From Pirellulaceae bacterium (GTDB lineage: Bacteria; Planctomycetota; Planctomycetia; Pirellulales; Pirellulaceae): a stretch of DNA of 64,000 nt. Of the stretch, positions 3,972 to 32,561 are shown in pieces (the stretch's first letter is position 1; every line of letters begins with the position of its first letter). The stretch is taken from assembly GCA_041399085.1 (NCBI GenBank), contig JAWKTM010000007.1, forward strand, positions 87,822 through 151,821, in the 5' to 3' direction. The notes below the pieces were generated by a model that worked only from the letters and a program-made list of their open reading frames with translations, had not been told where the DNA came from and searched no databases. The translations under genes and the position numbers were made by a program.

Positions 3972-4225
3972 TCGGCCGCTTAACCTCGCGGCGGACATGC
4001 CCAGCATCGCGTCATGAACACGAAGCCCGACTTGTCGGCAAGCTGCTACCCGCAGCGCCGACGCGTCGGGCTTTTTTCGTGTTCGCCTTTGGAGTGCTCC
4101 GCCTTGTCGGAGCTTTCTTTCCGTCAAGCGAGATCGGCCCTGCCTTGCCAACGCGGCCAGCGAGCCATCCAACTCCCTCCCGCCAATAATCCACGCCTGC
4201 AAATAACCGCGCGAGCAACCAGCCC

Positions 4226-5500
4226 ATGAAAGTGAAACTCGAATACGGACGCACGGGGCTCGAAGTCCAACTGCCCGCCCATCCGCACATGAGGCAACTC
4301 GCTTACAAAGATGCCGTGCCGCTGACTGATCCCGATGCCGAATTGCGGCAAATCTTGCAAACGCCCATCGGCTCGCCGTCACTAGCCGAACTGGCTCGCG
4401 GACGCCGCAGCGCCTGCATCCTGATCTGCGACATCACGCGGCCGGTGCCGAACGAGATGATCTTGCGGCCGATGCTCGAAACGCTCGAACAAGCCGGCAT
4501 GGCCCGCGACCAGATTCTCATCCTCGTCGCCACCGGACTGCATCGGCCCAACGTCGGCGACGAGCTGGTAGAAATGGTCGGCCAGCACATCGTCGACAAC
4601 TACCGGATCGACAACCACGACGGCCAGCAGCTCGACCAACACACGTACCTGGGCGACAGCCCGCGCGGCGTGCCGGTCTGGATCGACTCGCGTTACGTCC
4701 AAGCGGATCTGAAGATCGCCACGGGATTGATCGAACCGCATTTGATGGCCGGCTTTTCCGGCGGCCGCAAATTGATCTGTCCCGGCATCGCGGCGCTCGA
4801 AACCGTTCGAGTTTGGCACGGCCCCGATTTTCTGGAACATCCGAACGCCGACTGCGGCATCTTGATCGGCAATCCGGTGCATGAAGAGAACACCTGGATC
4901 GGTCGCCGAGCCGGCTGTGATTTTATTGTGAATGTAGTGATCGACGCCGAACGCCGGCCGCTGAAATGGGTCGCCGGCGATATGGAAGCCGCGTTCGAGG
5001 AAGGCGTGCGATTCGTGCGGTCGGTCGTCCTGGATACAGTGCCCGAACCGGTCGACATCGTGGTGACCAGCAGCGCCGGCTATCCGTTAGACACGACGTT
5101 CTATCAGTCGGTCAAAGCGATGACCGGCGCGCTGCCGATCGTCAAACAAGGCGGCACGATCATCGTCGCCGCCAGCCTGACCGAAGGCATCGGCAGTCCC
5201 CAGTTCCAGCAACTCTTTCACGAACATGCCGACCTGGACTCGTTCGTGCAATGCATCCTGGGCAAGGACTATTTCGTGATGGACCAATGGCAACTGGAAG
5301 AGTTGGCCAAGGTGCGTCGCAAGGCCCGCGTCAAGTTCTTCAGCGACGGCATGGCGAGCGAGACGCAGAACCAGTTGTTCGTCGAAGCCGCCCCCAGCGT
5401 CGAGCAAGCGTTGGCCGAATCGCTGGCGGAATACGGCCCCGAAGCTCGCGTAGCCGTGATTCCGAAAGGGCCGTATGTGCTGGCCCAAGTCGCCGGCTAA
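4226..5500 (+). CDS. LarA-family protein (nickel-pincer-dependent lactate racemase-like, DUF2088)
   Basis: N-terminus [14 protein letters not shown]; conserved VATGLHRP and [16 protein letters not shown] motifs typical of LarA. Confidence 0.8.
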
Positions 5501-6553: not shown

Positions 6554-6801
6554 GGCCGAGATTAGCGAACGACTCCGTCCAATGATGGAAACAGGACTCG
6601 TAGGGCATGCTTCGCATGCCGCCCCTCGCGTTGGAATAAAACCCGCACGGGAGCACCAATTCACGGATTGGGTGGCACGCCCGGAATCTTCGACGGGCGT
6701 GACCCAGCCGCGATCGCCATCGCGCCAACCCCGCCGAAACGCCTGGCCCTTCGTTTCTCTCTCTGCGCTCTCCGCGGCTCCGCGTTTCCAAATCCTCGTT
6801 T

Positions 6802-6886
6802 TTTTTTGAAACGCGGAGACGCAGAGAGCGCAGAGGAAATGCTCGGATAAGAACTCTGCGTCCTCTGCGCCTCTGCGTTTCTATCT
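6802..6886. repeat. ~85-bp repeat, copy 1 (GAAACGCGGAGACGCAGAGAGCGCAGAGGAAATGCTCGGATAAGAACTCTGCGTCCTCTGCGCCTCTGCGTTTCTAT); internally an inverted repeat
   Basis: Near-identical copy at 7312..7420. Part of the unit is also found inverted at 6757..6800. Confidence 0.7.
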
Positions 6887-6902
6887 CTTACGAACCAGAT
6901 CA

Positions 6903-7295
6903 TCATCCCTCCTTGAAATTGTTGACGATCCGATGCAATCCATCGACCAATTTGACTTCGTGGAAATTAATCAGCAGACCGACCCGCAGGTTCATCAAAC
7001 GAAGGTGTGACAGAGTCTGCGCCTTATCGACGGGATGGATTGCCGACTTGGCTTTTAGTTCGACGACGACACTTCCGTTGACGAGTAAGTCAGCTCGGAA
7101 ACCGCATTCCAAATGAACTTCGTCGTAAACGACTGGGATTGGTTGTTCTTCGACGACTTCAAATCCCCGTTTGCGTAGCTCATACGCCAGACACTCTCGA
7201 TAAGCCGTTTCCAGTAGCCCCGGTCCGAGCCGCTGATGGACTTCGATCGCGGCGCCGATGATTGCCAGTGGTGCGCGTTCAGAACAGCAATTCAC
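6903..7295 (-). CDS. GxxExxY protein (PD-(D/E)XK-like small protein, TIGR04256 family)
   Basis: 130-aa ORF containing GPGLLETAY, which matches the GxxExxY motif. Flanked on both sides by the ~85-bp direct repeat. Confidence 0.8.
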   Translation of the reverse strand: MNCCSERAPLAIIGAAIEVHQRLGPGLLETAYRECLAYELRKRGFEVVEEQPIPVVYDEVHLECGFRADLLVNGSVVVELKAKSAIHPVDKAQTLSHLRLMNLRVGLLINFHEVKLVDGLHRIVNNFKEG

Positions 7296-7311
7296 CTCTG
7301 GTCGGAAGAAT

Positions 7312-7420
7312 TTGAAACGCGGAGACGCAGAGAGCCGCAGAGGAAATGCTCGTATAAGAACTCTGCGTCCTCCGCGCCTCTGCGTTTCTATGTCTTCCAG
7401 ACCCGATCATGATGCCTCCC
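7312..7420. repeat. ~85-bp repeat, copy 2 (direct repeat of 6802..6886)
   Basis: Sequence identity with copy 1 apart from a few substitutions and indels. Confidence 0.7.
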
Positions 7421-15799: not shown

Positions 15800-16450
15800 A
15801 ATCTCTGCTGGGATCTGTGAGACTTGCCCTATCACAGTTCAACCAATGGCCGGAATGCATTTTGACCACGAAGGAGACAGAGGGCACGAAGGAAAGGCAG
15901 GGAAAAGAGTAGATACCCTGTCGCACTCGATGGGCGATATCGCCTGTCCAAATAAATACAACAGGCTAACCGCCATTTCCTTCGTGCTCTTCGTGTCCTT
16001 CGTGGTTTAGTATTCGAGTATCGATAAAATTCTTCGAGTGAAAACTTGATTTCTTGAACCTAACGTCACCAGCGGACATAAGGATAACGATGACTTAGCT
16101 GACTCAACTCTCTACACCGCGATTCATTATGTCTCCTAGTTCTCTGTTTAACTTAAGTATAAGATATTACTGTCGATGCCCCGCGGCCGAATTGATCCAT
16201 TGTACACGCGAGCGATGGAAAATCCGAAACGGGTGATTTTTCCGAGCCATATTGCTGACAAGCCAGTCAATTCAGGAAACAGCAAGCGACGTTATCATTT
16301 GCAAGCCAAGGACGCAAATACCGAATTAATAATGTTTCGCTATACCAATTGGAGACATCGCGGCCGAACCGCACAGAATTCTGAATCAGACAGAAGCCGA
16401 TGAAACTTGGCGTCTGATATTAATTTTTGATGGCCTTGGAATTGACTATT
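15800..16450. other. AT-rich (~45% GC) non-coding island with an imperfect inverted repeat (GCACGAAGGAAAGGCAG ... CCGCCATTTCCTTCGTGC, ~15877-15990)
   Basis: Sharp compositional contrast with the flanks; no convincing ORF. Confidence 0.5.
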
Positions 16451-24892: not shown

Positions 24893-24964
24893 GGGCTGGT
24901 AGCTGAGACGGTATAGCGGCGGTCTGAAGAACCGCAGACGAGGGTTCGAGCACCTCCCGGCCCA
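24893..24964 (+). tRNA. tRNA-Phe(GAA)
   Basis: Acceptor GGGCTGG/CCGGCCC; anticodon loop CTGAAGA; T-arm GAGGG-TTCGAGC. Confidence 0.8.
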
Positions 24965-24992
24965 CTTTGCGCTCAAAGAGCGCGCACAACAT

Positions 24993-25065
24993 GGCCCGTT
25001 CGACTTCGGGTGAGGTCATCGGTCTTTCAAGCCGAGTAGGTTGGGTTCGACTCCCACACGGGCTG
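24993..25065 (+). tRNA. tRNA-Glu(TTC)
   Basis: Acceptor GGCCCGT/ACGGGCT; anticodon loop CTTTCAA; T-loop TTCGACT. Confidence 0.8.
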
Positions 25066-25084
25066 CTTGAAAAAACAACACGAT

Positions 25085-25159
25085 CAGAACGTGGCGAAGC
25101 CTGGTTATCGCGCGTGGTCGGGGGCCACGAGATCGCAGGTTCAAATCCTGCCGTTCTGA
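25085..25159 (+). tRNA. tRNA-Pro(GGG), non-canonical C33
   Basis: Acceptor CAGAACG/CGTTCTG; anticodon arm CGTGG-TCGGGGG-CCACG; T-arm GCAGG-TTCAAAT-CCTGC. Confidence 0.65.
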
Positions 25160-25181
25160 CTGAACGAACAAAACAATTGAT

Positions 25182-25254
25182 CGGGCAGAGGTGCAGATGG
25201 AAGCACGCCTGCTTTGGGAGCAGGAGGGTCTCGGTTCGACTCCGAGGTGCCCGA
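25182..25254 (+). tRNA. tRNA-Pro(TGG)
   Basis: D-stem GTGC/GCAC; anticodon arm CCTGC-TTTGGGA-GCAGG; T-arm CTCGG-TTCGACT-CCGAG. Confidence 0.75.
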
Positions 25255-25264
25255 CTTGAAAAAC

Positions 25265-25336
25265 GGTAGTCGAGGGCTGGTTGCCCATACTCGGCTGATA
25301 ACCGAGTCGCGCTGAGTTCGATTCCCAGGACCACCA
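25265..25336 (+). tRNA. tRNA-Ile(GAT)-like, with A.C mismatches in the acceptor and T stems
   Basis: Anticodon arm CTCGG-CTGATAA-CCGAG; T-loop TTCGATT; atypical D-arm. Confidence 0.5.
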
Positions 25337-25407
25337 CTGAACGCGTAATGAACAGGAGAACAATGATGCACGCTGTCCGCTTGAAACGCATACACCAGAC
25401 CGATCAC

Positions 25408-25480
25408 AGGGTCGTGGTGTAACAGGCAGCACAGCAGACTTTTAATCTGCACGGTGTGGGTTCGATTCCCTCCGGCCCTA
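25408..25480 (+). tRNA. tRNA-Lys(TTT)
   Basis: Acceptor AGGGTCG/CGGCCCT; anticodon arm GCAGA-CTTTTAA-TCTGC; T-loop TTCGATT. Confidence 0.8.
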
Positions 25481-25485
25481 CTCGC

Positions 25486-25558
25486 TGGCGCGTAGCTCAG
25501 CGGTGAGAGCGGCGTCCTTATAAGACGCAGGTCGTGGGTTCAACTCCCATCGCGCCGA
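25486..25558 (+). tRNA. tRNA-Ile(TAT) (UAU anticodon, unusual for bacteria)
   Basis: TAGCTCAGCGGTGAGAGC D-arm; anticodon arm GCGTC-CTTATAA-GACGC; T-arm GTGGG-TTCAACT-CCCAT. Confidence 0.7.
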
Positions 25559-25574
25559 CTGAAGACAACAACAT

Positions 25575-25665
25575 GGGACTAAGGTGTTAGCGGCAGCCGA
25601 CCCGGAAGCCGGGTACCCCGCGGCTCTTAACCGGTGAGGTCAGGGTTCGAGCCCCTGTGGTCCTA
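25575..25665 (+). tRNA. 91-nt tRNA-like gene with canonical acceptor and T-arm but no resolvable anticodon arm
   Basis: Acceptor GGGACTA/TGGTCCT; T-arm CAGGG-TTCGAGC-CCCTG; internal hairpin CCCGG-AAG-CCGGG. Confidence 0.4.
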
Positions 25666-25679
25666 CTGACAATTTGCAA

Positions 25680-25751
25680 GCACTGGTCGTCTAGCGGCGA
25701 AGACTCCGCACCCGTAATGCGGCGACGTCGGTTCGAGTCCGGCCCGGTGCT
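25680..25751 (+). tRNA. tRNA-Thr(CGT), C33
   Basis: Acceptor GCACTGG/CCGGTGC; anticodon arm CCGCA-CCCGTAA-TGCGG; T-loop TTCGAGT. Confidence 0.75.
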
Positions 25752-25783
25752 CTGATGATCTTTGACAATTTGAAACGCAACAA

Positions 25784-25855
25784 GCGCCCATGATGTAAAG
25801 GCCAGCCTACTGCCTTGCCATGGCGGAAGTGCGGGTTCGATTCCCGCTGGGCGCT
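25784..25855 (+). tRNA. tRNA-Gly(GCC), weak D-arm
   Basis: Acceptor GCGCCCA/TGGGCGC; anticodon loop TTGCCAT; T-arm GCGGG-TTCGATT-CCCGC. Confidence 0.65.
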
Positions 25856-25863
25856 CTCAATAT

Positions 25864-25937
25864 CAGGGTGTGGGAAAGCCTGGCATTCCGCGTGCTTCGG
25901 GAGCACGAGATCGTTGGTTCAAATCCAACCATCCTGA
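25864..25937 (+). tRNA. tRNA-Pro(CGG)
   Basis: D-stem GGAA/TTCC; anticodon arm CGTGC-TTCGGGA-GCACG; T-arm GTTGG-TTCAAAT-CCAAC. Confidence 0.85.
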
Positions 25938-25946
25938 CTTAATGAT

Positions 25947-26021
25947 TGCGGTGGGTTCCGTGTTGGTACGGGTAGGCGGCTGTTAACCGCCCTGACGCAG
26001 GTTCGATTCCTGCCGCCGCAG
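25947..26021 (+). tRNA. tRNA-Asn(GTT)
   Basis: Anticodon arm GGCGG-CTGTTAA-CCGCC; T-arm GCAGG-TTCGATT-CCTGC; acceptor TGCGGTG/CGCCGCA. Confidence 0.75.
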
Positions 26022-26038
26022 CTTGTGAACATGAAAAC

Positions 26039-26122
26039 GGAAGGGCAAGCCAATTGGCGATGGCAGCCGCTTCGAAAGCGGTCGAGCGATGAGCCTTGAG
26101 GGTTCGACTCCCTCTCCTTCCG
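26039..26122 (+). tRNA. tRNA-Ser(CGA), class II
   Basis: Acceptor GGAAGGG/TCCTTCC; anticodon loop TTCGAAA; long variable arm; T-arm GAGGG-TTCGACT-CCCTC. Confidence 0.8.
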
Positions 26123-26138
26123 CTGAACGACAAACAAC

Positions 26139-26210
26139 GTGCTCTTGGCCGAGCGGCAAAGGCTCCAGGCTTCCAACCTGGCGAGGCGGGTTCGATTCCC
26201 GCAGAGCACT
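26139..26210 (+). tRNA. tRNA-Gly(TCC)
   Basis: Acceptor GTGCTCT/AGAGCAC; anticodon arm CCAGG-CTTCCAA-CCTGG; T-arm GCGGG-TTCGATT-CCCGC. Confidence 0.85.
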
Positions 26211-26222
26211 CTTCAGATTGAT

Positions 26223-26294
26223 GGGTCGGTAGCTCAGCGGCAGAGCAGGTGCCTGTTAAGTACCAGCGCGCGGGTTCGAGTCCCGCCCGTCCCT
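26223..26294 (+). tRNA. tRNA-Asn(GTT), second copy with a different sequence
   Basis: Anticodon arm GGTGC-CTGTTAA-GTACC; T-arm GCGGG-TTCGAGT-CCCGC; one acceptor mismatch. Confidence 0.7.
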
Positions 26295-26305
26295 CTGTGA
26301 AACGA

Positions 26306-26379
26306 TGCGGGGTAGTCGCTGCTGGTAGTGATGCCTGACTTTGAACCAGGAGGCGTAGGTTCGATTCCTACCCCCGCAG
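26306..26379 (+). tRNA. tRNA-Gln(TTG)
   Basis: Acceptor TGCGGGG/CCCCGCA; anticodon loop CTTTGAA; T-arm GTAGG-TTCGATT-CCTAC. Confidence 0.7.
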
Positions 26380-26433
26380 CTCGAGGCGAACCATGCACGA
26401 ACATGCGTGTCGTTTGAAACACACAACAACCAT

Positions 26434-26536
26434 TGCGGGACAGTCGCTGTTGGTAGTGACGCCTGGCTCCGGGCACCGATCGGCCATAAGGCCGGATTGG
26501 TCGTGGAGGCCGTTGGTTCGATTCCAACTCCCGCAG
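26434..26536 (+). tRNA. 103-nt tRNA-like gene: a paralogue of the Gln tRNA whose anticodon stem-loop is replaced by a ~50-nt insert containing a CGGCC-ATAA-GGCCG hairpin
   Basis: Acceptor TGCGGGA/TCCCGCA; D-arm nearly identical to 26306..26379; T-arm GTTGG-TTCGATT-CCAAC. No 5-bp/7-nt anticodon arm can be drawn. Confidence 0.4.
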
Positions 26537-26546
26537 CTCAAAGGAC

Positions 26547-26631
26547 GGAAGTCATCCGGCTGGATGAGGAGCCTGTTTTGAAAACAGGTGGCGACGCGAG
26601 TCGCTTGTGAGTTCGAGTCTCACGACTTCCG
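26547..26631 (+). tRNA. tRNA-Ser(TGA), class II
   Basis: Acceptor GGAAGTC/GACTTCC; anticodon arm CCTGT-TTTGAAA-ACAGG; variable hairpin GGCGAC-GCGA-GTCGCT; T-arm GTGAG-TTCGAGT-CTCAC. Confidence 0.85.
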
Positions 26632-26642
26632 CTCCGAAAGAT

Positions 26643-26713
26643 GGGCTCATCGTCCAACAGGAAGATGCTGGCGTCGCATGCCAGAGATTCGGGTGCAATT
26701 CCCGATGGGTCCA
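26643..26713 (+). tRNA. tRNA-Ala(CGC)-like (G3.U70 present), reduced D-arm, T-loop TGCAATT
   Basis: Acceptor GGGCTCA/TGGGTCC; anticodon arm CTGGC-GTCGCAT-GCCAG. Confidence 0.55.
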
Positions 26714-26722
26714 CTCAACAAC

Positions 26723-26795
26723 AGTCCTGTGGCCTAGCGGCGAAGGCAGCTCTCTTACAAGGAGCGGATCGGGGGTTCGAGTCCCTCCAGGACTA
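26723..26795 (+). tRNA. tRNA-Val(TAC)
   Basis: Acceptor AGTCCTG/CAGGACT; anticodon arm GCTCT-CTTACAA-GGAGC; T-loop TTCGAGT. Confidence 0.8.
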
Positions 26796-26810
26796 CTTCA
26801 GCAACACGAT

Positions 26811-26903
26811 GCCCAGATACGCCAATCGGCAGAGCGGTCCGGCTCGGGCACCGACCGAAGGTTGGTCGCCGGACGTTTGCAGGTTCGAGTCCTGCTCTGG
26901 GTA
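26811..26903 (+). tRNA. 93-nt tRNA-like gene whose central domain is a 7-bp stem (GTCCGGC/GCCGGAC) enclosing a 24-nt loop
   Basis: Acceptor GCCCAGA/TCTGGGT; T-arm GCAGG-TTCGAGT-CCTGC; no canonical anticodon arm. Confidence 0.4.
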
Positions 26904-26917
26904 CTGACAACACGCAT

Positions 26918-26991
26918 GGCTCGGTAGGCAATTGGCAGACCACTTTGGCTTAGAACCAGAGATGCTGCGGGTTCGAATCCCGCCTGAGCTA
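26918..26991 (+). tRNA. tRNA with Leu anticodon TAG on a short-variable-arm (class I) scaffold
   Basis: Anticodon arm TTTGG-CTTAGAA-CCAGA; T-arm GCGGG-TTCGAAT-CCCGC; discriminator A. Confidence 0.55.
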
Positions 26992-27000
26992 CTTTCATAC

Positions 27001-27073
27001 GTCCTCGTGGAGCAGCGGAGTGCTCGCCTGCCTGTCACGCAGGAGATCGTGGGTTCAAATCCCATCGGGGACG
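27001..27073 (+). tRNA. tRNA-Asp(GTC)
   Basis: D-stem GAGC/GCTC; anticodon arm CCTGC-CTGTCAC-GCAGG; T-arm GTGGG-TTCAAAT-CCCAT; discriminator G. Confidence 0.85.
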
Positions 27074-27079
27074 CTGAGA

Positions 27080-27131
27080 GTCGCCTTTCGCTCCGCGAAA
27101 GCAGCGCTACTTTCGCGGAGCGAAAGGCGAC
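27080..27131. repeat. Perfect 22-bp inverted repeat (GTCGCCTTTCGCTCCGCGAAAG / CTTTCGCGGAGCGAAAGGCGAC) with an 8-nt loop, lying between tRNAs
   Basis: Direct reading of the sequence. Confidence 0.8.
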
Positions 27132-27135
27132 AAAC

Positions 27136-27213
27136 GGCGCGGTACGCAAACCGGTAAAGCGGCGAAGCTCAAAACTTCGTGATCGTCTGTGAGTTCGACT
27201 CCCACCCGTGCTA
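27136..27213 (+). tRNA. tRNA with Leu anticodon CAA, class II-type D-arm but only a 9-nt variable region
   Basis: D-arm CGC-AAACCGGTAAA-GCG; anticodon arm CGAAG-CTCAAAA-CTTCG; T-loop TTCGACT; discriminator A. Confidence 0.6.
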
Positions 27214-27221
27214 CTGAGAGT

Positions 27222-27311
27222 CGTGAGGCGTGAGACTTGGGCATTGGCAGGCCCAAGTGGCTGTAACCCACCCGCTTTCGAGCTTTGCAGGTTCAACTCC
27301 TGCTCGGGCGC
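27222..27311 (+). tRNA. tRNA-Tyr(GTA)-like, class II, with unpaired acceptor stem (probable pseudo-tRNA)
   Basis: D-arm GGGC-ATTGGCAG-GCCC; anticodon GTGG-CTGTAAC-CCAC; 15-nt variable region; T-arm GCAGG-TTCAACT-CCTGC. Confidence 0.4.
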
Positions 27312-27403
27312 ACTGAAAGCATGGCCCTGTTCTTCCTACGGCAGGTGATGCGAGCCTCAAGCCTCCGCGATACGGGTTCAACTCTGTACGGGCTGGCCGA
27401 TAT

Positions 27404-27487
27404 GGCGAGGTGGCGGAACAGGTATACGCGCGCGACGTCAGAACGTCGTCCGCCGGGACATGCGAGTTCGAATCTCGCCTTCGCTAC
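27404..27487 (+). tRNA. tRNA-Leu(CAG), class II with long variable arm; anticodon loop only 6 nt (TCAGAA)
   Basis: Acceptor GGCGAGG/CTTCGCT; D-arm GCG-GAACAGGTATA-CGC (close to E. coli Leu); T-arm GCGAG-TTCGAAT-CTCGC; discriminator A. Confidence 0.7.
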
Positions 27488-27639
27488 TCGAAACACTGCA
27501 GGTGCGACAGGTGTCCAACTGACTTTCATACGGTCGGCGCTCGGCTCGATACCGAGACTCCGCAACTGCGGGTGGGCCAGTGCTCATCGGAGCCTCATGA
27601 GCCTGACTGCCGGGTGCGACCCCCGGACCCGCCACTTAC

Positions 27640-27716
27640 GGCCGAGTACGCAAACAGGCAAAGCGGTCACGTCGAGAGCGTGGCGATTTTGTGGGTTCGA
27701 TGCCCACCTTCGGCCT
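27640..27716 (+). tRNA. tRNA with Leu anticodon GAG, C33, short (8-nt) variable region
   Basis: Acceptor GGCCGAG/TTCGGCC; D-arm CGC-AAACAGGCAAA-GCG; anticodon arm CACG-TCGAGAG-CGTG; T-arm GTGGG-TTCGATG-CCCAC. Confidence 0.55.
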
Positions 27717-27725
27717 TCCACTGAC

Positions 27726-27794
27726 GATCTTGTCCAGCGCAGAAGACGCTCTGGGTGAACCAGGAGATCGATGGTTCGATTCCATCCGCGATCA
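27726..27794 (+). tRNA. Degenerate tRNA-like element (intact T-arm and acceptor, 5-nt anticodon loop)
   Basis: T-arm GATGG-TTCGATT-CCATC; acceptor GATCTTG/CGCGATC with one mismatch. Confidence 0.3.
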
Positions 27795-27892
27795 CTTATG
27801 AATTAATATTCGTAGGTGTTCCGGTAGCACGCGTCCGTGGTAAGGGACGGGAGATTGGGTTCGACTCCCGAACGGACCTCCTCTCAATGAAT

Positions 27893-27964
27893 GGGCTCAT
27901 GCTGATGGAGGCGACTGACCCTTGCAAGGTCGGTGCAGACTGGTTCGACCTGGATCAGGTCCAC
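27893..27964 (+). tRNA. tRNA-Ala(TGC)-like paralogue of 26643..26713, with degenerate T-arm
   Basis: Acceptor GGGCTCA; G3.U70; anticodon arm GACC-CTTGCAA-GGTC. Confidence 0.4.
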
Positions 27965-27979
27965 TTGATTCTGGGCTGA

Positions 27980-28046
27980 TGGTCCAACGGGGAAGACACC
28001 GCCCTGGCGTGGCGGAAATCCGGGCCCGAATTCCCGGTCGGTCCAC
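27980..28046 (+). tRNA. Degenerate tRNA-like element with Ala(GGC)-type anticodon arm
   Basis: CCGCC-CTGGCGT-GGCGG stem-loop plus a CCGGG...CCCGG T-arm-like hairpin; the acceptor cannot be paired. Confidence 0.3.
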
Positions 28047-28063
28047 TGACATTGAAAACATAC

Positions 28064-28147
28064 GGAAGGCAGTTGATATACCCGCCGGGCCGGTTTGCTA
28101 AACCGTGTGACTCCACAAGGTCATGTGGGTCAACCTGATGCCTTCCG
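28064..28147 (+). tRNA. tRNA-Ser(GCT)-like, class II, degenerate T-arm
   Basis: Acceptor GGAAGGC/GCCTTCC; anticodon arm CGGT-TTGCTAA-ACCG; variable hairpin TGAC...GTCA. Confidence 0.45.
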
Positions 28148-28159
28148 GGCTGATGGCCT

Positions 28160-28226
28160 GATGGTGAAATGGAAATCATATCTCGCTTCTAACGAGATGG
28201 TCCAGGTTCAACTCCTGGTCGAGCTT
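28160..28226 (+). tRNA. tRNA-Arg(TCT)-like with an unpaired acceptor
   Basis: Anticodon arm TCTCG-CTTCTAA-CGAGA; T-arm CCAGG-TTCAACT-CCTGG. Confidence 0.4.
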
Positions 28227-28248
28227 CTGATTGAAAACGGAAGGGCAA

Positions 28249-28326
28249 CCCGATTGGCGACGGGACCCGGTTGGAAGCCGGTCGAGCATTTTCTAAACGC
28301 CTTGCGAGTTCGACTCGCTCCGCTGA
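28249..28326 (+). tRNA. Pseudo-tRNA-Ser(GGA), a paralogue of 26039..26122 with a degenerate 3' acceptor and shortened T-loop
   Basis: Shares 5' GAAAACGGAAGGGCAA... with the Ser(CGA) gene; anticodon loop TTGGAAG. Confidence 0.35.
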
Positions 28327-28370
28327 GCAAATGCGTGACGTAACGCGTGAACGGAAAGGACAAGACAATG

Positions 28371-29170: not shown

Positions 29171-29720
29171 ATGGATCATGGTAGCGAAGATGCTCCAGTG
29201 CCCGGGCGCTGGTGCTGGAACCGCAACTGGCAGCCAGTGAACGTGGCCACGGTGTTGCGGGGCTGGTGCTGTTGTGGAACGAGTCCGCGCGGGTCGTCGA
29301 TCCAACGGACTACCAGCTTTACACCTGGGAGGATTGGTCGAAGTTGCGTCCGCGCGACGACGAGCGGTTCATCCAGGCGGTGAAGTTTCGCTGCGTGTGC
29401 CGGAAGTGATTACGCTCGCCGACTACGACCGGGTTGCCATCGGCGGCCGTCTCGTTCAGCCGTCGGAACATTTTCAAGCGTGACCATTACACGTGCCAGT
29501 ACTGCGGTCGGCAGCCCGGCAGCGAGGAACTGACGATCGACCACGTTGTGCCTGTGCTCAGGGCGAGTCGCGGTGGGATCAACTGCGTGCTGGATGGTTT
29601 GACGTGCAACCACCGCAAGGCCGACCGCACGCCACAGCAAGCCAAGCTGCGACTCCGCAACGAGCCAGCACAGCCGAAGTGGAACCTGCTTACACCGCGG
29701 CACGAAGTGCGAATGGAAAG
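29171..29720 (+). pseudogene. HNH endonuclease (classic ~170-aa HNH family) with at least three frameshifts
   Basis: MDHGSEDAPVPGRW.WNRNWQPVNVATV (frame A); LLWNESARVVDPTDYQLYTWEDWSKLRPR...AVKF (frame B); RVPEVITLADYDRVAIGGRLVQPS (frame C); then RRNIFKRDHYTCQYCGR...TIDHVVP...GLTCNHRKADRTP (CxxC...H-N-H motifs). Confidence 0.65.
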
Positions 29721-29823
29721 CTTCATCGAAGTTCGTCAGCGAGGCGTACTGGAACGTCGAGCTGGCGAAGTAATTGACAACGATCGCTCCCTGGTTCCAG
29801 TCGCCGGGAGTTTCTCACTCCAC

Positions 29824-29889
29824 GAGCGTGCTCCTGGGAGAAGCAGCCAGCCTCCAAAACTGGCGGACAGGGTTCGACTCTCGCGCTCT
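29824..29889 (+). other. tRNA-like remnant (acceptor GAGCGTG/CGCGCTC, TTCGACT loop, no proper T-stem)
   Basis: Direct reading; low confidence. Confidence 0.25.
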
Positions 29890-29899
29890 CATGCTTTGC

Positions 29900-30265
29900 G
29901 AGGCTTGAGGTGTGAGGCTTGAGGCTTGAGGGGCGTGTTTTCCTCGGTTTCCTCAGGTCTCAGGACTCAAGCCTCACTTACGCCCTGCGAGTGTGTGATT
30001 TTTTGGACGGCATGGCAGACTCTGGAATCTGCCGGACGAGGTTCGATTCCTCGATAAAGCGTGCTAGGCTTGAGGCGCGAGGCTTGAGACTTGAGGGAAG
30101 AACAGAGAACGATCCTTCCTCGAGCCTCAGGTCTTAAGTCTCAGGACTCATGAGTCGCCGGAGTGTGCCGGATTCGCACGCGAGCCCGCGAAGCTCGAAG
30201 ATCAGGTTCGATTCCTGGCGGCGACACTGAAGAGGCTTGAGGTGTGAGGCTTGAGACTTGAGGGA
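29900..30265. repeat. GAGGCTTGAG repeat family: three ~34-bp forward units (29900-29933, 30065-30097, 30232-30265) alternating with inverted units (29951-29976, 30115-30150), flanking a tRNA half-like module (30014-30052) and a tRNA-like gene
   Basis: Direct reading. The related motif GAGCCTCAAGCCTC also occurs inside the array at ~27345-27365. Confidence 0.7.
30154..30226 (+). tRNA. tRNA-Arg(GCG)-like, C33, embedded in GAGGCTTGAG repeats
   Basis: Perfect acceptor GTCGCCG/CGGCGAC; D-stem GTGT/GCAC; anticodon arm CGAGC-CCGCGAA-GCTCG; T-arm TCAGG-TTCGATT-CCTGG. Confidence 0.55.
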
Positions 30266-30267
30266 GG

Positions 30268-30828
30268 TTAGTTGTCGGGGCGTAACGACCGGATTAGGCC
30301 AACGAGGACGCGAGCGGTCTCGTCGGCCTGGCGGCTGAGATCGGTGGCGACATCGTCCGGCAGATAGCCGAGACGATGGGCGACGGATAGCTGGTACTCG
30401 ACTTCGCGGGCCGAGCCCAATGCTAGGTCGAGAAACCGAACGTAGTCTGCCTGCGTGCTACGAGCGCAGCCTTCGACGATGTTCGAGGCGATGGAAAGAG
30501 CGGCACGGTGCATCTGGGATGTAAGCCCGAACAGCTCTTCTTTCGGGAAGGACTTCGTCGCGGCGTAAACGGCCAGGACCAGCGCGTCAGCAAGCTCGAA
30601 CGCCCGGAGTTTTCGATGATCTCTCATGACGACATTTTCTTCCCGTCTCGTGGTCCTGGGCTTCACGACTCGGAACAATGACGCCAGAGCCAGACGGTGC
30701 AAGGCTGCCTCGGGCGAAGCCAGCGGTTCGACCTCGCCGGCGTCTCTTCCAAGCAAGGTTTCGATGTCGTCTGGACCAGCGGCGCCTCGATCCATCCATT
30801 CGGATTCGGGTCGGTGTGTTCCGGACAT
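30268..30828 (-). CDS. Four-helix-bundle protein (TIGR02436; 23S rRNA IVS-associated family)
   Basis: ELFGLTSQMHRAALSIASNIVEGCAR...DYVRFLDLALGSAREVEYQLSVAHRLGYL. Confidence 0.8.
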   Translation of the reverse strand: MSGTHRPESEWMDRGAAGPDDIETLLGRDAGEVEPLASPEAALHRLALASLFRVVKPRTTRREENVVMRDHRKLRAFELADALVLAVYAATKSFPKEELFGLTSQMHRAALSIASNIVEGCARSTQADYVRFLDLALGSAREVEYQLSVAHRLGYLPDDVATDLSRQADETARVLVGLIRSLRPDN

Positions 30829-30857
30829 GGATTATGACAATGACGATGTCACTACCG

Positions 30858-30930
30858 ACAAGGTTAGCTCAGAGGGTAGAGCACCAGACTATGAATCTGG
30901 AAGTCACGGGTTCGACTCCCGTACCAACAC
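30858..30930 (+). tRNA. tRNA-like gene with intact D-, anticodon- and T-arms but unpaired acceptor stem (possible integration-site remnant or pseudo-tRNA)
   Basis: TAGCTCAGAGGGTAGAGC D-arm; anticodon arm CCAGA-CTATGAA-TCTGG; T-arm ACGGG-TTCGACT-CCCGT; 5' ACAAGGT does not pair with 3' ACCAACA. Confidence 0.4.
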
Positions 30931-31439
30931 CACCAACAGGCTGTATCATGGCAATCGATGCCCGAACCGCCAGGACATCGGCGTTACCCAAGAGCCTGAG
31001 GGAGGCGGGCGTACGTAGGATCGGCTGCCAGTTGGTCGCCATGTAGGCGAGTCTCGAAGAGACTGGCTTACAGAAGTGATCGGCCGGTGGCAGCATGAAC
31101 GAACACCATGTAGTGCGCGGATACCGCCTTTGCCCGCTGTCGGTGGAAGGTTGCCGGTGCTGGTGAGCGACGCCACGGGCTGCGGCCCGACGCGAACTCA
31201 TCAGCCGACGCAGTCGAAAACCGTCAGCGGTGACCGCTCAAGCAGCACTCCGTGCCAGTTCATGTGATCCGCGAACGTTCCGCCTTCCAACGGCGTCTCT
31301 TTCGTTTAACCGCAACGCCAACGGCGTGCGTGTGGAGCGCGGTTGGACGATCGATTGCAGCACACGCGCAGCCCGTTGGGCTTGCGGTTAAACGATGATG
31401 ACACACCACGCCCTTGATAACAGAAAGGAGGGCAATCCA

Positions 31440-32561
31440 ATGATGCTGTTCAAGCGAATTAAGATCCGTAGTTATGAGATGGGATTGTACTTCCGTGACG
31501 GCGAGTTCAAGGGACTCTTGAGCGAAGGTCGGCACTGGCTGTTCGATCCGCTGATGAAGGTCCGCGTCGACGTGGCCAACATGCGCGACGCGTGGCTGGC
31601 TCACGACAAGCTCGACATGATCGTCAAGTCGGGTGTGCTGAAGGACCGCGCGGTTGTGATGGACCTGAAGGACCACCAGCGTGGTCTGGTCTGGATCGAC
31701 GGCCGGTTCACGCACTTGCTCGCCGCCGGCCTGTACGCCTACTGGCACGGTGTCCGCGACGTGCGTGTCGAGGTGATCGACGTTCGCCAGGTGCGGTTCG
31801 AGCACGAGGACCTGAAGGTCATCGCGAAGACGCACATGGCGAAGCAGTTGCTCGACATCTGCACGGTCGACCGCGACCGCGTGGGTGTACTGTTCATCGA
31901 CGGACGGTACGTCGACACGCTGCGGCCGGGTCTGTACGCGTTCTGGAAGGGCGCGGCGGACGCCCGGGTTGTCGAGATCGACATGCGCGAGACCACGATC
32001 GACGTCAGCGGTCAGGAGATCATGACGTCGGACAAGGTCAGCCTGCGCATGAACGCACTGGTCACGTACCGCATCGCCGACGCGCGGAAGGCGGTCAGCT
32101 CGACGGACGATGTCCGCCAGGCTCTGTACCGCGAGACGCAGTTGGCATTGCGGGCCATCGTCGGCGCACGCGAGCTCGACGCATTCCTGACGGACAAGGA
32201 CGCCGTGGCTCAGGAGATCGAGCAGGCGGTACGCCGCCGCGCGGGCGAGCTGGGTCTGGAGATCGTATCGGTCGGTATCCGGGACGTGATCCTGCCGGGC
32301 GACATGAAGGACCTGATGAACAAGGTCACGGAGGCCAAGAAGGCCGCCGAGGCCAACCTCATCTCGCGCCGCGAGGAGACGGCCGCCATGCGCAGCCAAG
32401 CCAACACCGCCAAGCTGCTGGCCGACAACCCAACGCTGATGCGACTGCGTGAACTGGAAGTCCTGGAAAAGATCGCATCGGCCGGGCAACCTGAACGTCG
32501 TCCTTGGCGAAAAGGACTTGCCGAGCGCGGTCAACCTGTTGTAACCCTCTGCCCCGTTTGA
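31440..32561 (+). CDS. SPFH/band-7 domain protein (stomatin/HflKC-like)
   Basis: AGGAGGG RBS before ATGATG; SPFH core (SLRMNALVTYRIADARKAV...AIVGARELDAFLTDKDAVAQEI); C-terminal coiled-coil. Confidence 0.8.
   Translation: MMLFKRIKIRSYEMGLYFRDGEFKGLLSEGRHWLFDPLMKVRVDVANMRDAWLAHDKLDMIVKSGVLKDRAVVMDLKDHQRGLVWIDGRFTHLLAAGLYAYWHGVRDVRVEVIDVRQVRFEHEDLKVIAKTHMAKQLLDICTVDRDRVGVLFIDGRYVDTLRPGLYAFWKGAADARVVEIDMRETTIDVSGQEIMTSDKVSLRMNALVTYRIADARKAVSSTDDVRQALYRETQLALRAIVGARELDAFLTDKDAVAQEIEQAVRRRAGELGLEIVSVGIRDVILPGDMKDLMNKVTEAKKAAEANLISRREETAAMRSQANTAKLLADNPTLMRLRELEVLEKIASAGQPERRPWRKGLAERGQPVVTLCPV

Follow-up and report, generated by a model that had tools for sequence, protein, structure and literature searches.

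Heptad blocks and hairpins in the array tail

This report concerns heptanucleotide (heptad) repeats in the tail of a tRNA gene array in a 64-kb stretch of a Pirellulaceae genome (contig JAWKTM010000007.1; hereafter the window, to which the motif counts and feature scans refer), together with the gene, of the IVP (23S rRNA-intervening-sequence protein) family, beside which they end. The window encodes PSCyt2/PSD1 and DUF7133 proteins, which point to a Planctomycetota chromosome, and ARAGORN called 27 tRNA genes in it, all on the plus strand, with 26 arrayed at 24893-28227 and the 27th, tRNA-Arg(GCG), standing in the tail (Table 1). The original prediction, read from the letters of this DNA, had described forward units alternating with inverted units around a tRNA half and a tRNA-Arg-like gene at 30154-30226. 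Three forward and two inverted blocks were indeed located, and ARAGORN called the Arg gene with its end at 30227. Beyond these, the first block has a fourth tRNA-like unit (unit A) ahead of it, and the minus-strand IVP gene adjoins the third.

Table 1. Features of the array tail and a related repeat copy in the main array (ORF, open reading frame; TRF, Tandem Repeats Finder; MFE, minimum free energy)
Feature	Position	Strand	Evidence
Exact 10-mer copy (GAGGCTTGAG)	27356-27365	minus	Inside main tRNA array; no forward partner seen in sequence
HNH endonuclease pseudogene, start of array tail	29178..29773	+	tblastn with intact L123 orthologue
Decayed tRNA-Trp(CCA), unit A	29822..29890	+	Alignment to tRNA-Trp(CCA) of L080 and L135
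Forward heptad arm, ORF-less hairpin 1	29900..29932	+	TRF and repeat comparison; 32/33 identical to cassette arm
Inverted heptad arm, hairpin 1	29951..29977	+	Repeat comparison, MFE stem
Decayed tRNA-Arg(TCG), unit B	29982..30062	+	Alignment to tRNA-Arg(TCG) of L080, L123 and L135
Forward heptad arm, ORF-less hairpin 2	30065..30097	+	30/33 identical to cassette arm
Inverted heptad arm, hairpin 2	30118..30150	+	Repeat comparison, stem folding
tRNA-Arg(GCG), unit C	30154..30227	+	ARAGORN call; orthologue alignment
Lone forward heptad arm (3'-flank arm of IVP cassette)	30232..30264	+	Ends 3 nt before minus-strand stop codon
IVP gene, 119 aa, four-helix bundle, antisense to tRNAs	30268..30627	-	PF05635 1.2e-32; TIGR02436 5e-34
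tRNA-like gene closing tail, anticodon AUG	30862..30925	+	Rfam tRNA 54.2 bits, model positions 5-66 only

The forward blocks, each of 33 nt and 88-97% identical to the reference copy, are built of the heptad TGAGGCT and have a common order of variants, GAGGCTT GAGGTGT GAGGCTT GAGRCTT GAGGG; the first inverted block ends at 29976 or 29977, depending on where it is cut. TRF reported a period of 7 with 4.6 copies at 29900-29931, 3.7 at 29951-29976, and 4.6 at 30232-30263, that is, at least three tandem 7-nt units in non-coding DNA, as in long simple-sequence repeats (LSSRs) and short tandemly repeated repetitive sequences (STRRs). Matches to GAGGCTTGAG with at most one mismatch numbered 16 in the window against 3.7 +/- 1.7 expected, a count reached in 0 of 100 shuffles, and 12 of the 16 fell within 29900-30262. 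The recurrence of the motif that had been predicted in the main array at about 27345-27365 was borne out by a single exact copy (Table 1), possibly a relic arm.

The arms of both complete pairs form imperfect stems of ~30 bp. Hairpin 1 (29897-29980) folded at -48.6 kcal/mol (z -6.05 vs. shuffles), with 32 pairs in its MFE stem, 7 of them G-U, and hairpin 2 (30060-30155) at -43.7 kcal/mol (z -3.9), its stem of 32 pairs including 8 G-U and ranging from -41.3 to -43.7 kcal/mol. The check on folding that the original prediction had proposed thus came out for two of the three forward blocks, since the third, folded with its downstream sequence, did no better than shuffles (z -0.28). On the minus strand, the two hairpins gave -38.4 and about -28.7 kcal/mol; in the window, 7-8 G-U pairs per hairpin give the plus-strand RNA an advantage of 10-13 kcal/mol. 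The two ORF-less copies span 29897-29980 and 30062-30153.

An Rfam search of the hairpins returned no fitting family, only sub-threshold, miRNA-like noise. In 29700-31500, neither strand has a terminator-like site (a stem with a T-tract after it), and sigma-70-like promoters were likewise not detected there; Rho-independent terminators were ruled out, as neither stem precedes a T-tract. A CRISPR array was likewise ruled out, in agreement with the original prediction, since successive units point in opposite directions and contain repeats themselves, and the "spacers" are tRNA genes.

IVP genes between heptad arms

The protein encoded beside the third block has, besides its PF05635/TIGR02436 matches, a weak match to Avd, and its four-helix bundle carries no known catalytic motif. 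Starting from the protein, an IVP survey was made of 80 metagenomic loci with relatives 56-75% identical, of which 77 had enough flank; the counts are not fully independent, as the loci are closely related and in part orthologous. Complementarity of flanks was measured by local alignment score with a cut-off of >=12, which took the place of duplex energies after these gave values too large to be credible on shuffled sequences. The two flanks of one locus, upstream and downstream, were complementary in 48 of 77 cases, compared with 14.7% of cross-locus arms and 2.2% of random positions, and strict period-7 runs occurred in 37/77 upstream and 36/77 downstream flanks vs. 10/324 background windows. 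The median distance was 23.5 nt from the end of one arm to the ATG and 9.5 nt from the stop codon to the start of the other arm. By eye, arms were present at most of the metagenomic loci, and 13 of 14 IVP loci on viral contigs had the ORF between heptad arms.

The heptad consensus was GRCTNNA (e.g., GGCTGTA, GGCTGGA, GGCTTGA, and GGCTGAA), with the GRCT core conserved and the last three positions variable. The two arms match within a locus and the heptad differs between loci; therefore, it is the pairing that is conserved and not the sequence. In L080 and L123, the antisense IVP gene lies between a forward and an inverted heptad arm, i.e., in the loop of the hairpin. Since the relatives' IVP ORFs lie between heptad arms, we take the block at 30232-30264 for the 3'-flank arm of an IVP cassette, which, from this comparison, appears to have lost its 5' arm in the window. 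At L123 (3800-3990), the CCTCAAG/CCCCAAG heptads of the inverted cassette arm have multiplied to about 27 units over about 190 nt, against about 5 units in the forward arm, a difference that bespeaks strongly asymmetric slippage.

Placement next to tRNA genes recurs. tRNAs lay within 250 nt at 14 of the 80 IVP loci, in at least 8 slots, and 40/40 of these tRNAs were antisense to the IVP gene; in all, the IVP loci comprise 326 kb and 212 tRNA genes. Relative to protein-coding neighbors, a crude ORF-based test gave no clear bias in IVP orientation.

The association of IVP with heptads is apparent only from the side of the IVP gene. A genome scan with a 17-mer of the motif gave a raw number near chance (about 140 by calculation), and raw numbers were not used as evidence; only the taxonomic skew was informative, Planctomycetota making up 32 of the 80 loci listed. 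Among the matches listed, the same heptad occurred in many Planctomycetota genomes, so that the motif class, whose conservation the original prediction had left to be checked, does recur in related genomes. A general link of (GAGGCTT)n to IVP or tRNA, approached from the motif, was dropped, as IVP was found at 3 of 120 listed loci and tRNA at 6. One such motif-bearing locus, L027 of a Pirellula metagenome-assembled genome (MAG), has at about 1120-2080 GAGGCTT-type arms around a non-coding, internally palindromic insert of ~340 nt and no IVP gene; therefore, heptad arms can carry other cargo. Parts of this insert recur in contigs L035, L043, L056, and L111 of the same MAG and represent a dispersed repeat family nested in heptad hairpins.

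Hairpins in syntenic tRNA arrays

Three loci, L080 (a Planctomycetota MAG, from the genome scan for the heptad run) and L123 and L135 (from the metagenome scan with IVP), are tRNA arrays syntenic with that of the window and have its tail tRNAs in common. The order Trp-CCA, Arg-TCG, Arg-GCG is the same in L080 and L135, and both Arg genes are also present in L123. L123 and L135 have 12 and 8 nt, respectively, between the two Arg genes and no hairpin there; the same slot holds an ACTGAAA-type hairpin in L080, an unrelated heptad, and the GAGGCTT hairpin in the window. The IVP cassette follows the HNH gene in L080 and L123, stands between His and Trp in L135, and follows ArgGCG in the window. Equivalent slots may therefore be empty or hold an ORF-less hairpin or an IVP cassette, from which it follows that the tRNAs predate the hairpins and that the hairpins were acquired slot by slot. 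Nor do the repeats belong to the tRNA units, as the orthologous pairs in L123 and L135 stand 8-12 nt apart with no hairpin.

These arrays also bear on whether a tRNA-plus-hairpin unit of ~165 nt was made three times by local tandem duplication and then decayed. The forward blocks recur at steps of 165 and 167 nt, alignment of the T-arm regions preceding each gives 67-79%, and the whole units have a mean column identity of 68%, all as duplication would have it. However, the tRNA parts are orthologous to three different tRNAs whose order is kept in L080 and L135, the Arg pairs of L123 and L135 lack the hairpin, and the middle slot of L080 carries a different heptad. Simple tandem duplication is ruled out by slot-by-slot gain, the even spacing being accounted for by tRNA length plus hairpin length, and we consider such an origin very improbable.

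Hairpins between tRNAs are common in this material. Of the 91 inter-tRNA spacers that measured 45-260 nt, 63 formed strong hairpins, for the most part with a period of 7. The remaining spacers were very short, and across all 237 the median length came to 40 nt. In 13 arrays, ORF-less arms were closer to the cassette arm of their own locus (median 15.5) than to those of other loci (10.5; p = 9e-7), and the arms in L080 matched the cassette arm there at 29/31, as against 32/33 and 30/33 for hairpins 1 and 2 of the window. On these alignments, ORF-less hairpins and IVP cassettes appear to be one family. Over the 63 hairpin spacers, there was no strand bias (28 sense vs. 30 antisense; 193 vs. 200 G-U pairs, p = 0.62), and strand asymmetry as general evidence for RNA structure in the tRNA sense was dropped, since it vanishes over these spacers and the 77 cassettes.

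Signatures of transposition

Two contigs of one metagenome, L177 and L178, have in common an IVP element of 473 nt (approximately 4089-4561 in each) that is 98% identical between them and set in unrelated flanks. Its ends are razor-sharp (GTAACTACTCAG...GAACAGTTAC) and consist of a terminal inverted repeat, GTAACTACTCAG/CTGAACAGTTAC, within which the heptads lie. Direct target duplications of 8 bp (TACAAATC and AAAGAGAA) bound the two copies, and the corresponding empty sites are predicted to be ...CACCTGTTACAAATCTTGAACC... and ...GGTAAAAGAGAAGCCATTTC... Sharp ends, terminal inverted repeats, and target duplications together are the signature of transposition, and these copies therefore seem to have inserted in the manner of a transposable element. 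No transposase domain was found among the ~30 window ORFs scanned against Pfam, and Pfam searches of the ORFs around the array (21.8-24.4 kb and 28.4-29.1 kb) gave no matches.

Decay of the tail genes

Comparison with the syntenic arrays shows the array tail to be decaying: Trp-CCA, Arg-TCG, and Arg-GCG are pre-existing genes, of which the first two are now pseudogenes. With tblastn, the HNH gene at the start of the tail is recovered as three fragments that fall in two frames, and a stop codon interrupts it; its Pfam HNH/HNH_5 matches are weak, and its orthologues are intact in L080 (2396-2992, minus) and L123 (4380-4997, minus). This gene of ~200 aa is a conserved member of these tRNA arrays, situated after tRNA-His. 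In L123, its reading frame extends into a heptad arm and stops at a TGA within the arm.

Unit A has kept its anticodon arm, with an insertion in the D-loop and an altered 3' strand of the T-stem; ARAGORN did not call it, and Rfam gave a weak tRNA-Sec-like match of 22.9 bits. Unit B scored 19.4 bits as an Rfam tRNA over 29997-30061, the gathering score being 29. It has lesions in three places: TGATTTTTT is added in the D region, the anticodon loop is changed and has grown, and the 3' strand of the acceptor no longer pairs. Unit C presents a full cloverleaf in a four-sequence alignment with its orthologues, with 4 pairs kept by two-sided changes, and is probably functional; its Rfam score is only 23.7 bits.

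Within unit B lies the 50-nt module that had been described as a tRNA half, and the anticodon-like hairpin and perfect T-arm at 30014-30052 are there as stated, which would suit a split-tRNA or minigene system with repeats bracketing a functional half. Nevertheless, the decayed 5' part of the same tRNA (GCCCTGCGAGTGTG, from 29982) still stands upstream and is alignable to the intact genes of L080, L123, and L135; no complementary leader or trailer able to join halves is present, and the neighboring Trp and HNH genes are decaying as well. A split tRNA or tRNA half was rejected, since 29982-30062 is contiguous and aligns over its full length to tRNA-Arg(TCG) with disabling changes. We give that reading next to no credence: the module is the 3' part of a decayed tRNA-Arg(TCG), and the composite repeat structure that had been proposed holds as such, with no minigene in it.

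The tRNA-like gene that closes the tail was not called by ARAGORN and aligns to a tRNA labelled 'Cys(ACA)' in L080, its orthologues in L123 and L135 being tRNA-Cys(GCA). It has about 3 acceptor pairs, and its anticodon drifts between genomes (AUG/GCA/ACA). An SPFH/Band-7 gene follows it.

Several irregular tRNAs were noticed in the arrays themselves. Three ARAGORN calls have abnormal anticodon loops, one in the window with the 4-base anticodon CAGA (27404-27487; Rfam tRNA 36.8 bits) and two in L123 (6415-6491 and 6581-6675), of which one has CGGG and the other an anticodon of two bases; they may be decaying tRNAs or resemble frameshift suppressors. At 27370-28330, the gaps separating the called tRNAs contain tRNA fragments, among them several stand-alone GGTTCGA hairpins that look like T-arms (e.g., 27770-27786, 27857-27869, and 28304-28318), and an Rfam tRNA at 26643-26713 was missed by ARAGORN. 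tRNA relics are thus strewn through the array.

Relation to rRNA intervening sequences

Knowledge of intervening sequences (IVSs) in 23S rRNA, and of the S23p/IVP ORFs they carry, goes back to about 1990, with their origin, mobility, and protein function unexplained (PMC4990558). The IVS of Coxiella burnetii is 428 nt long and has a terminal stem of 28 bp and an IVP-family ORF in its loop. Immediately ahead of that ORF stand tandem GACAGAT heptamers, two or three depending on the strain; RNase III cuts within the stem, at the first repeat (PMC4990558). The present elements resemble the IVSs of Coxiella and Leptospira in the homologous PF05635/TIGR02436 ORF in the loop, the total length of ~430-470 nt, the tandem heptamers of variable copy number beside the ORF, the existence of ORF-less forms, and a sporadic distribution that suggests horizontal transfer (PMC4990558). 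In the window, a long terminal stem of the IVS kind (about 20-30 bp) is present in units 1 and 2, the third being one-armed, and a PF05635 ORF is present only at unit 3, whereas in L080 and L123 the ORF lies between two arms. The differences are as plain. An Rfam search of the window returned only tRNAs and no rRNA; the elements occupy inter-tRNA spacers, and elsewhere they lie between protein genes and in phage genomes and not in rRNA; the ORF runs against the host transcript, unlike that of Coxiella, which is read in the rRNA sense, going by the description of its start codon and RNase III site (PMC4990558); and both arms are almost wholly heptads, of unit GRCTNNA vs. GACAGAT, with cleavage demonstrated in Coxiella and supposed here.

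Taken together, we think it probable, with the reservations given below, that the array tail was colonized by one family of IVS-like, probably mobile, heptad-armed cassettes, together with derivatives that lack the ORF, and that RNase III probably acts on the stems of both. The window copy is a worn example, with two empty hairpins, one half cassette, and surrounding pseudogenes. By analogy with the IVSs of Coxiella and Leptospira, a transcript crossing the element would fold the arms into a double-stranded stem of ~30 bp, and RNase III would cut this heptad stem and so remove the insert. With such cleavage, sitting inside a heavily transcribed unit (a tRNA array, an rRNA gene, or an operon, for instance) would cost the element little, and in a tRNA array the cut would also separate neighboring pre-tRNAs. 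The ORF-less hairpins may be derivatives or copies of the IVP element that resemble miniature inverted-repeat transposable elements (MITEs).

Several observations weigh against this. Among (GAGGCTT)n sites listed from other genomes, an inverted partner of the same heptad lay within 750 nt at only 17 of 118, so that many heptad runs are solitary, as slippage alone can make them; within the 64 kb, the motif is confined to the 29900-30265 locus and one relic. The target duplications come from two copies in one other sub-lineage. A second pair of elements, L159 and L162, occupies different contexts and has no clean target duplication, and neither target duplication nor sharp ends are visible at the window copies or at L080. 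No complementary partner of the 30232-30264 block was found in 30628-30900, leaving the cassette without a 5' arm. The IVP cassettes have no strand preference (35 vs. 41), and since the hairpin spacers have no bias either, there is no general signature of selection on tRNA-sense RNA. Lastly, cleavage of heptad hairpins by RNase III outside rRNA is reasoned by analogy.

Some of these points would suit heptanucleotide microsatellites made by slippage in both orientations, in which case the hairpins would be incidental or generic RNA-stabilizing stem-loops and the IVP gene a coincidental neighbor. Heptamer runs are sporadically abundant and intergenic in bacteria (PMC4679880, citing Mrazek 2007), most listed (GAGGCTT)n sites have no inverted partner, the hairpins have no strand bias, and the long L123 run reads as active slippage. 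On the other hand, when the IVP genes are taken as the starting point, complementary heptad arms flank the ORF far above controls, and the arms co-vary within a locus. The forward arms of the window have the same order of variant heptads (CTT, TGT, CTT, R-CTT) over 33 nt, which indicates that a module was copied and not made by independent slippage, and in L177 and L178 a discrete element bounded by target duplications has its heptads within the terminal inverted repeats. We therefore regard slippage as an unlikely explanation of the whole.

Other repeat systems were compared with the present elements. The STRRs of cyanobacteria are reportedly heptanucleotide LSSRs and are said to go back to Mazel et al. 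in 1990. The TAACTGA repeats of Beggiatoaceae are also heptanucleotide LSSRs (PMC4679880), and both kinds are like the present repeats in their tandem 7-nt units, intergenic position, and patchy phylogenetic distribution. They are mainly direct runs, however, often just upstream of start codons, while here the runs form paired hairpins tied to a gene family.

In Geobacter metallireducens, tandem hepta- and octanucleotides paired on opposite strands have been described as "global regulator binding sites" (PMC2700814). Like the present arms, these are multicopy, intergenic tandem short repeats facing complements on the other strand; in contrast, they are read as protein-binding, no IVP link has been reported for them, and their sequences are unrelated to our heptads. 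That they were proposed as regulator sites suggests that the heptads, too, could be arrays of DNA- or RNA-protein binding sites, for a global regulator or the IVP pentamer, or act at the DNA level as a cruciform or in nucleoid organization or replication. The conserved GRCT core with three variable positions, the relation of IVP to Avd, a nucleic-acid-binding protein of diversity-generating retroelements, and strand symmetry would all fit, symmetry being compatible either with transcription of both strands or with a DNA-level role. Yet arm sequence varies widely while complementarity is kept, which favors pairing over sequence-specific recognition, and the homologous Coxiella element is a demonstrated RNase III substrate. 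We think such a role quite improbable.

The copies also have features of MITEs and of repetitive extragenic palindromic (REP) and bacterial interspersed mosaic (BIME) elements, being short, non-coding hairpins in several copies whose ORF-less forms resemble a larger element. The window arms act as inverted repeats in the MITE manner, and the relatives L177 and L178 have both terminal inverted repeats and 8-bp target duplications, yet no duplication is present at the window copies. Unlike MITE, REP, or BIME elements, ours have internally repetitive arms and no transposase or REP-associated tyrosine transposase (RAYT) partner was identified; nor do the window copies carry a REP head of the GTAG/CGTC type. 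The intercistronic RNase III hairpins of phages of the T7 type are long, imperfect stems between units, and the present stems could likewise be cut and leave stabilizing 3' stems, but those of T7 type are unique sequences, neither tandem repeats nor mobile cassettes.

Other repeats and hairpins in the window

Further hairpins were seen elsewhere. At 31302-31395, a hairpin with 33-nt arms (85% complementary) and a 28-nt loop ends at the first ATG of the SPFH/Band-7 ORF. An intergenic hairpin at 15865-16006, with 31-nt arms (87% complementary), an 80-nt loop, and short repeats of the CACGAAGG/CCTTCGTG type, is similar in style to the heptad hairpins at 29900-30265 and has another repeat unit. 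A loopless palindrome of 26+26 nt at 27080-27131 (96% complementary, not heptad-based) fills the spacer between tRNA-Asp and tRNA-Leu(CAA).

A second gene family is embedded in tandem-repeat arms at 6761-7390. Here, a PD-(D/E)XK "GxxExxY" gene (6903-7295, minus; PF13366 6e-37/TIGR04256) is flanked by two direct hairpin units of ~80 nt with CGCAGAG/CTCTGCG repeats (6804-6880 and 7311-7390), and a long-range inverted pair, 6767-6797/7305-7335, brackets the ORF. A PDDEXK_3 query of viral contigs found no relatives.

Implications

IVP-family genes are very common, yet the searchable literature only touches on them, as oddities inserted into cas operons or into the rRNA genes of bacteria of the candidate phyla radiation (CPR). 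Heptamer microsatellites (PMC4679880), the paired tandem sites of Geobacter (PMC2700814), the IVS with its ORF, and IVP in cas operons and CPR rRNA are thus already known. Searches of the available literature turned up no description of an IVP ORF between inverted heptad runs as a general rule, nor of recurrent antisense IVP genes in tRNA arrays, of ORF-less derivatives, or of target duplications; the nearest precedent is the remark on heptamers upstream of the ORF in Coxiella.

The present comparison suggests that rRNA intervening sequences are part of a wider, probably mobile family. For annotation, array tails of this kind are to be read as pseudogenes and inserted hairpins and not as unusual tRNA halves. 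The IVP-cassette pattern accounts for some of the heptamer microsatellites of Planctomycetota and offers points that can be tested, namely the defined ends of elements, sites with and without an insert, a possible step of RNA processing, and a nucleic acid that may be the ligand of the protein. More speculatively, and with considerable doubt on our part, IVP cassettes with heptad arms might constitute one large, non-autonomous mobile family that leaves ORF-less hairpins in chromosomes, tRNA arrays, rRNA genes, and phages, with the Avd-like protein recognizing the arms or helping to generate them. If this were true, the classical IVS of 23S rRNA would be merely the most visible landing site, and the S23p protein would serve the element's own propagation or its excision at the RNA level.

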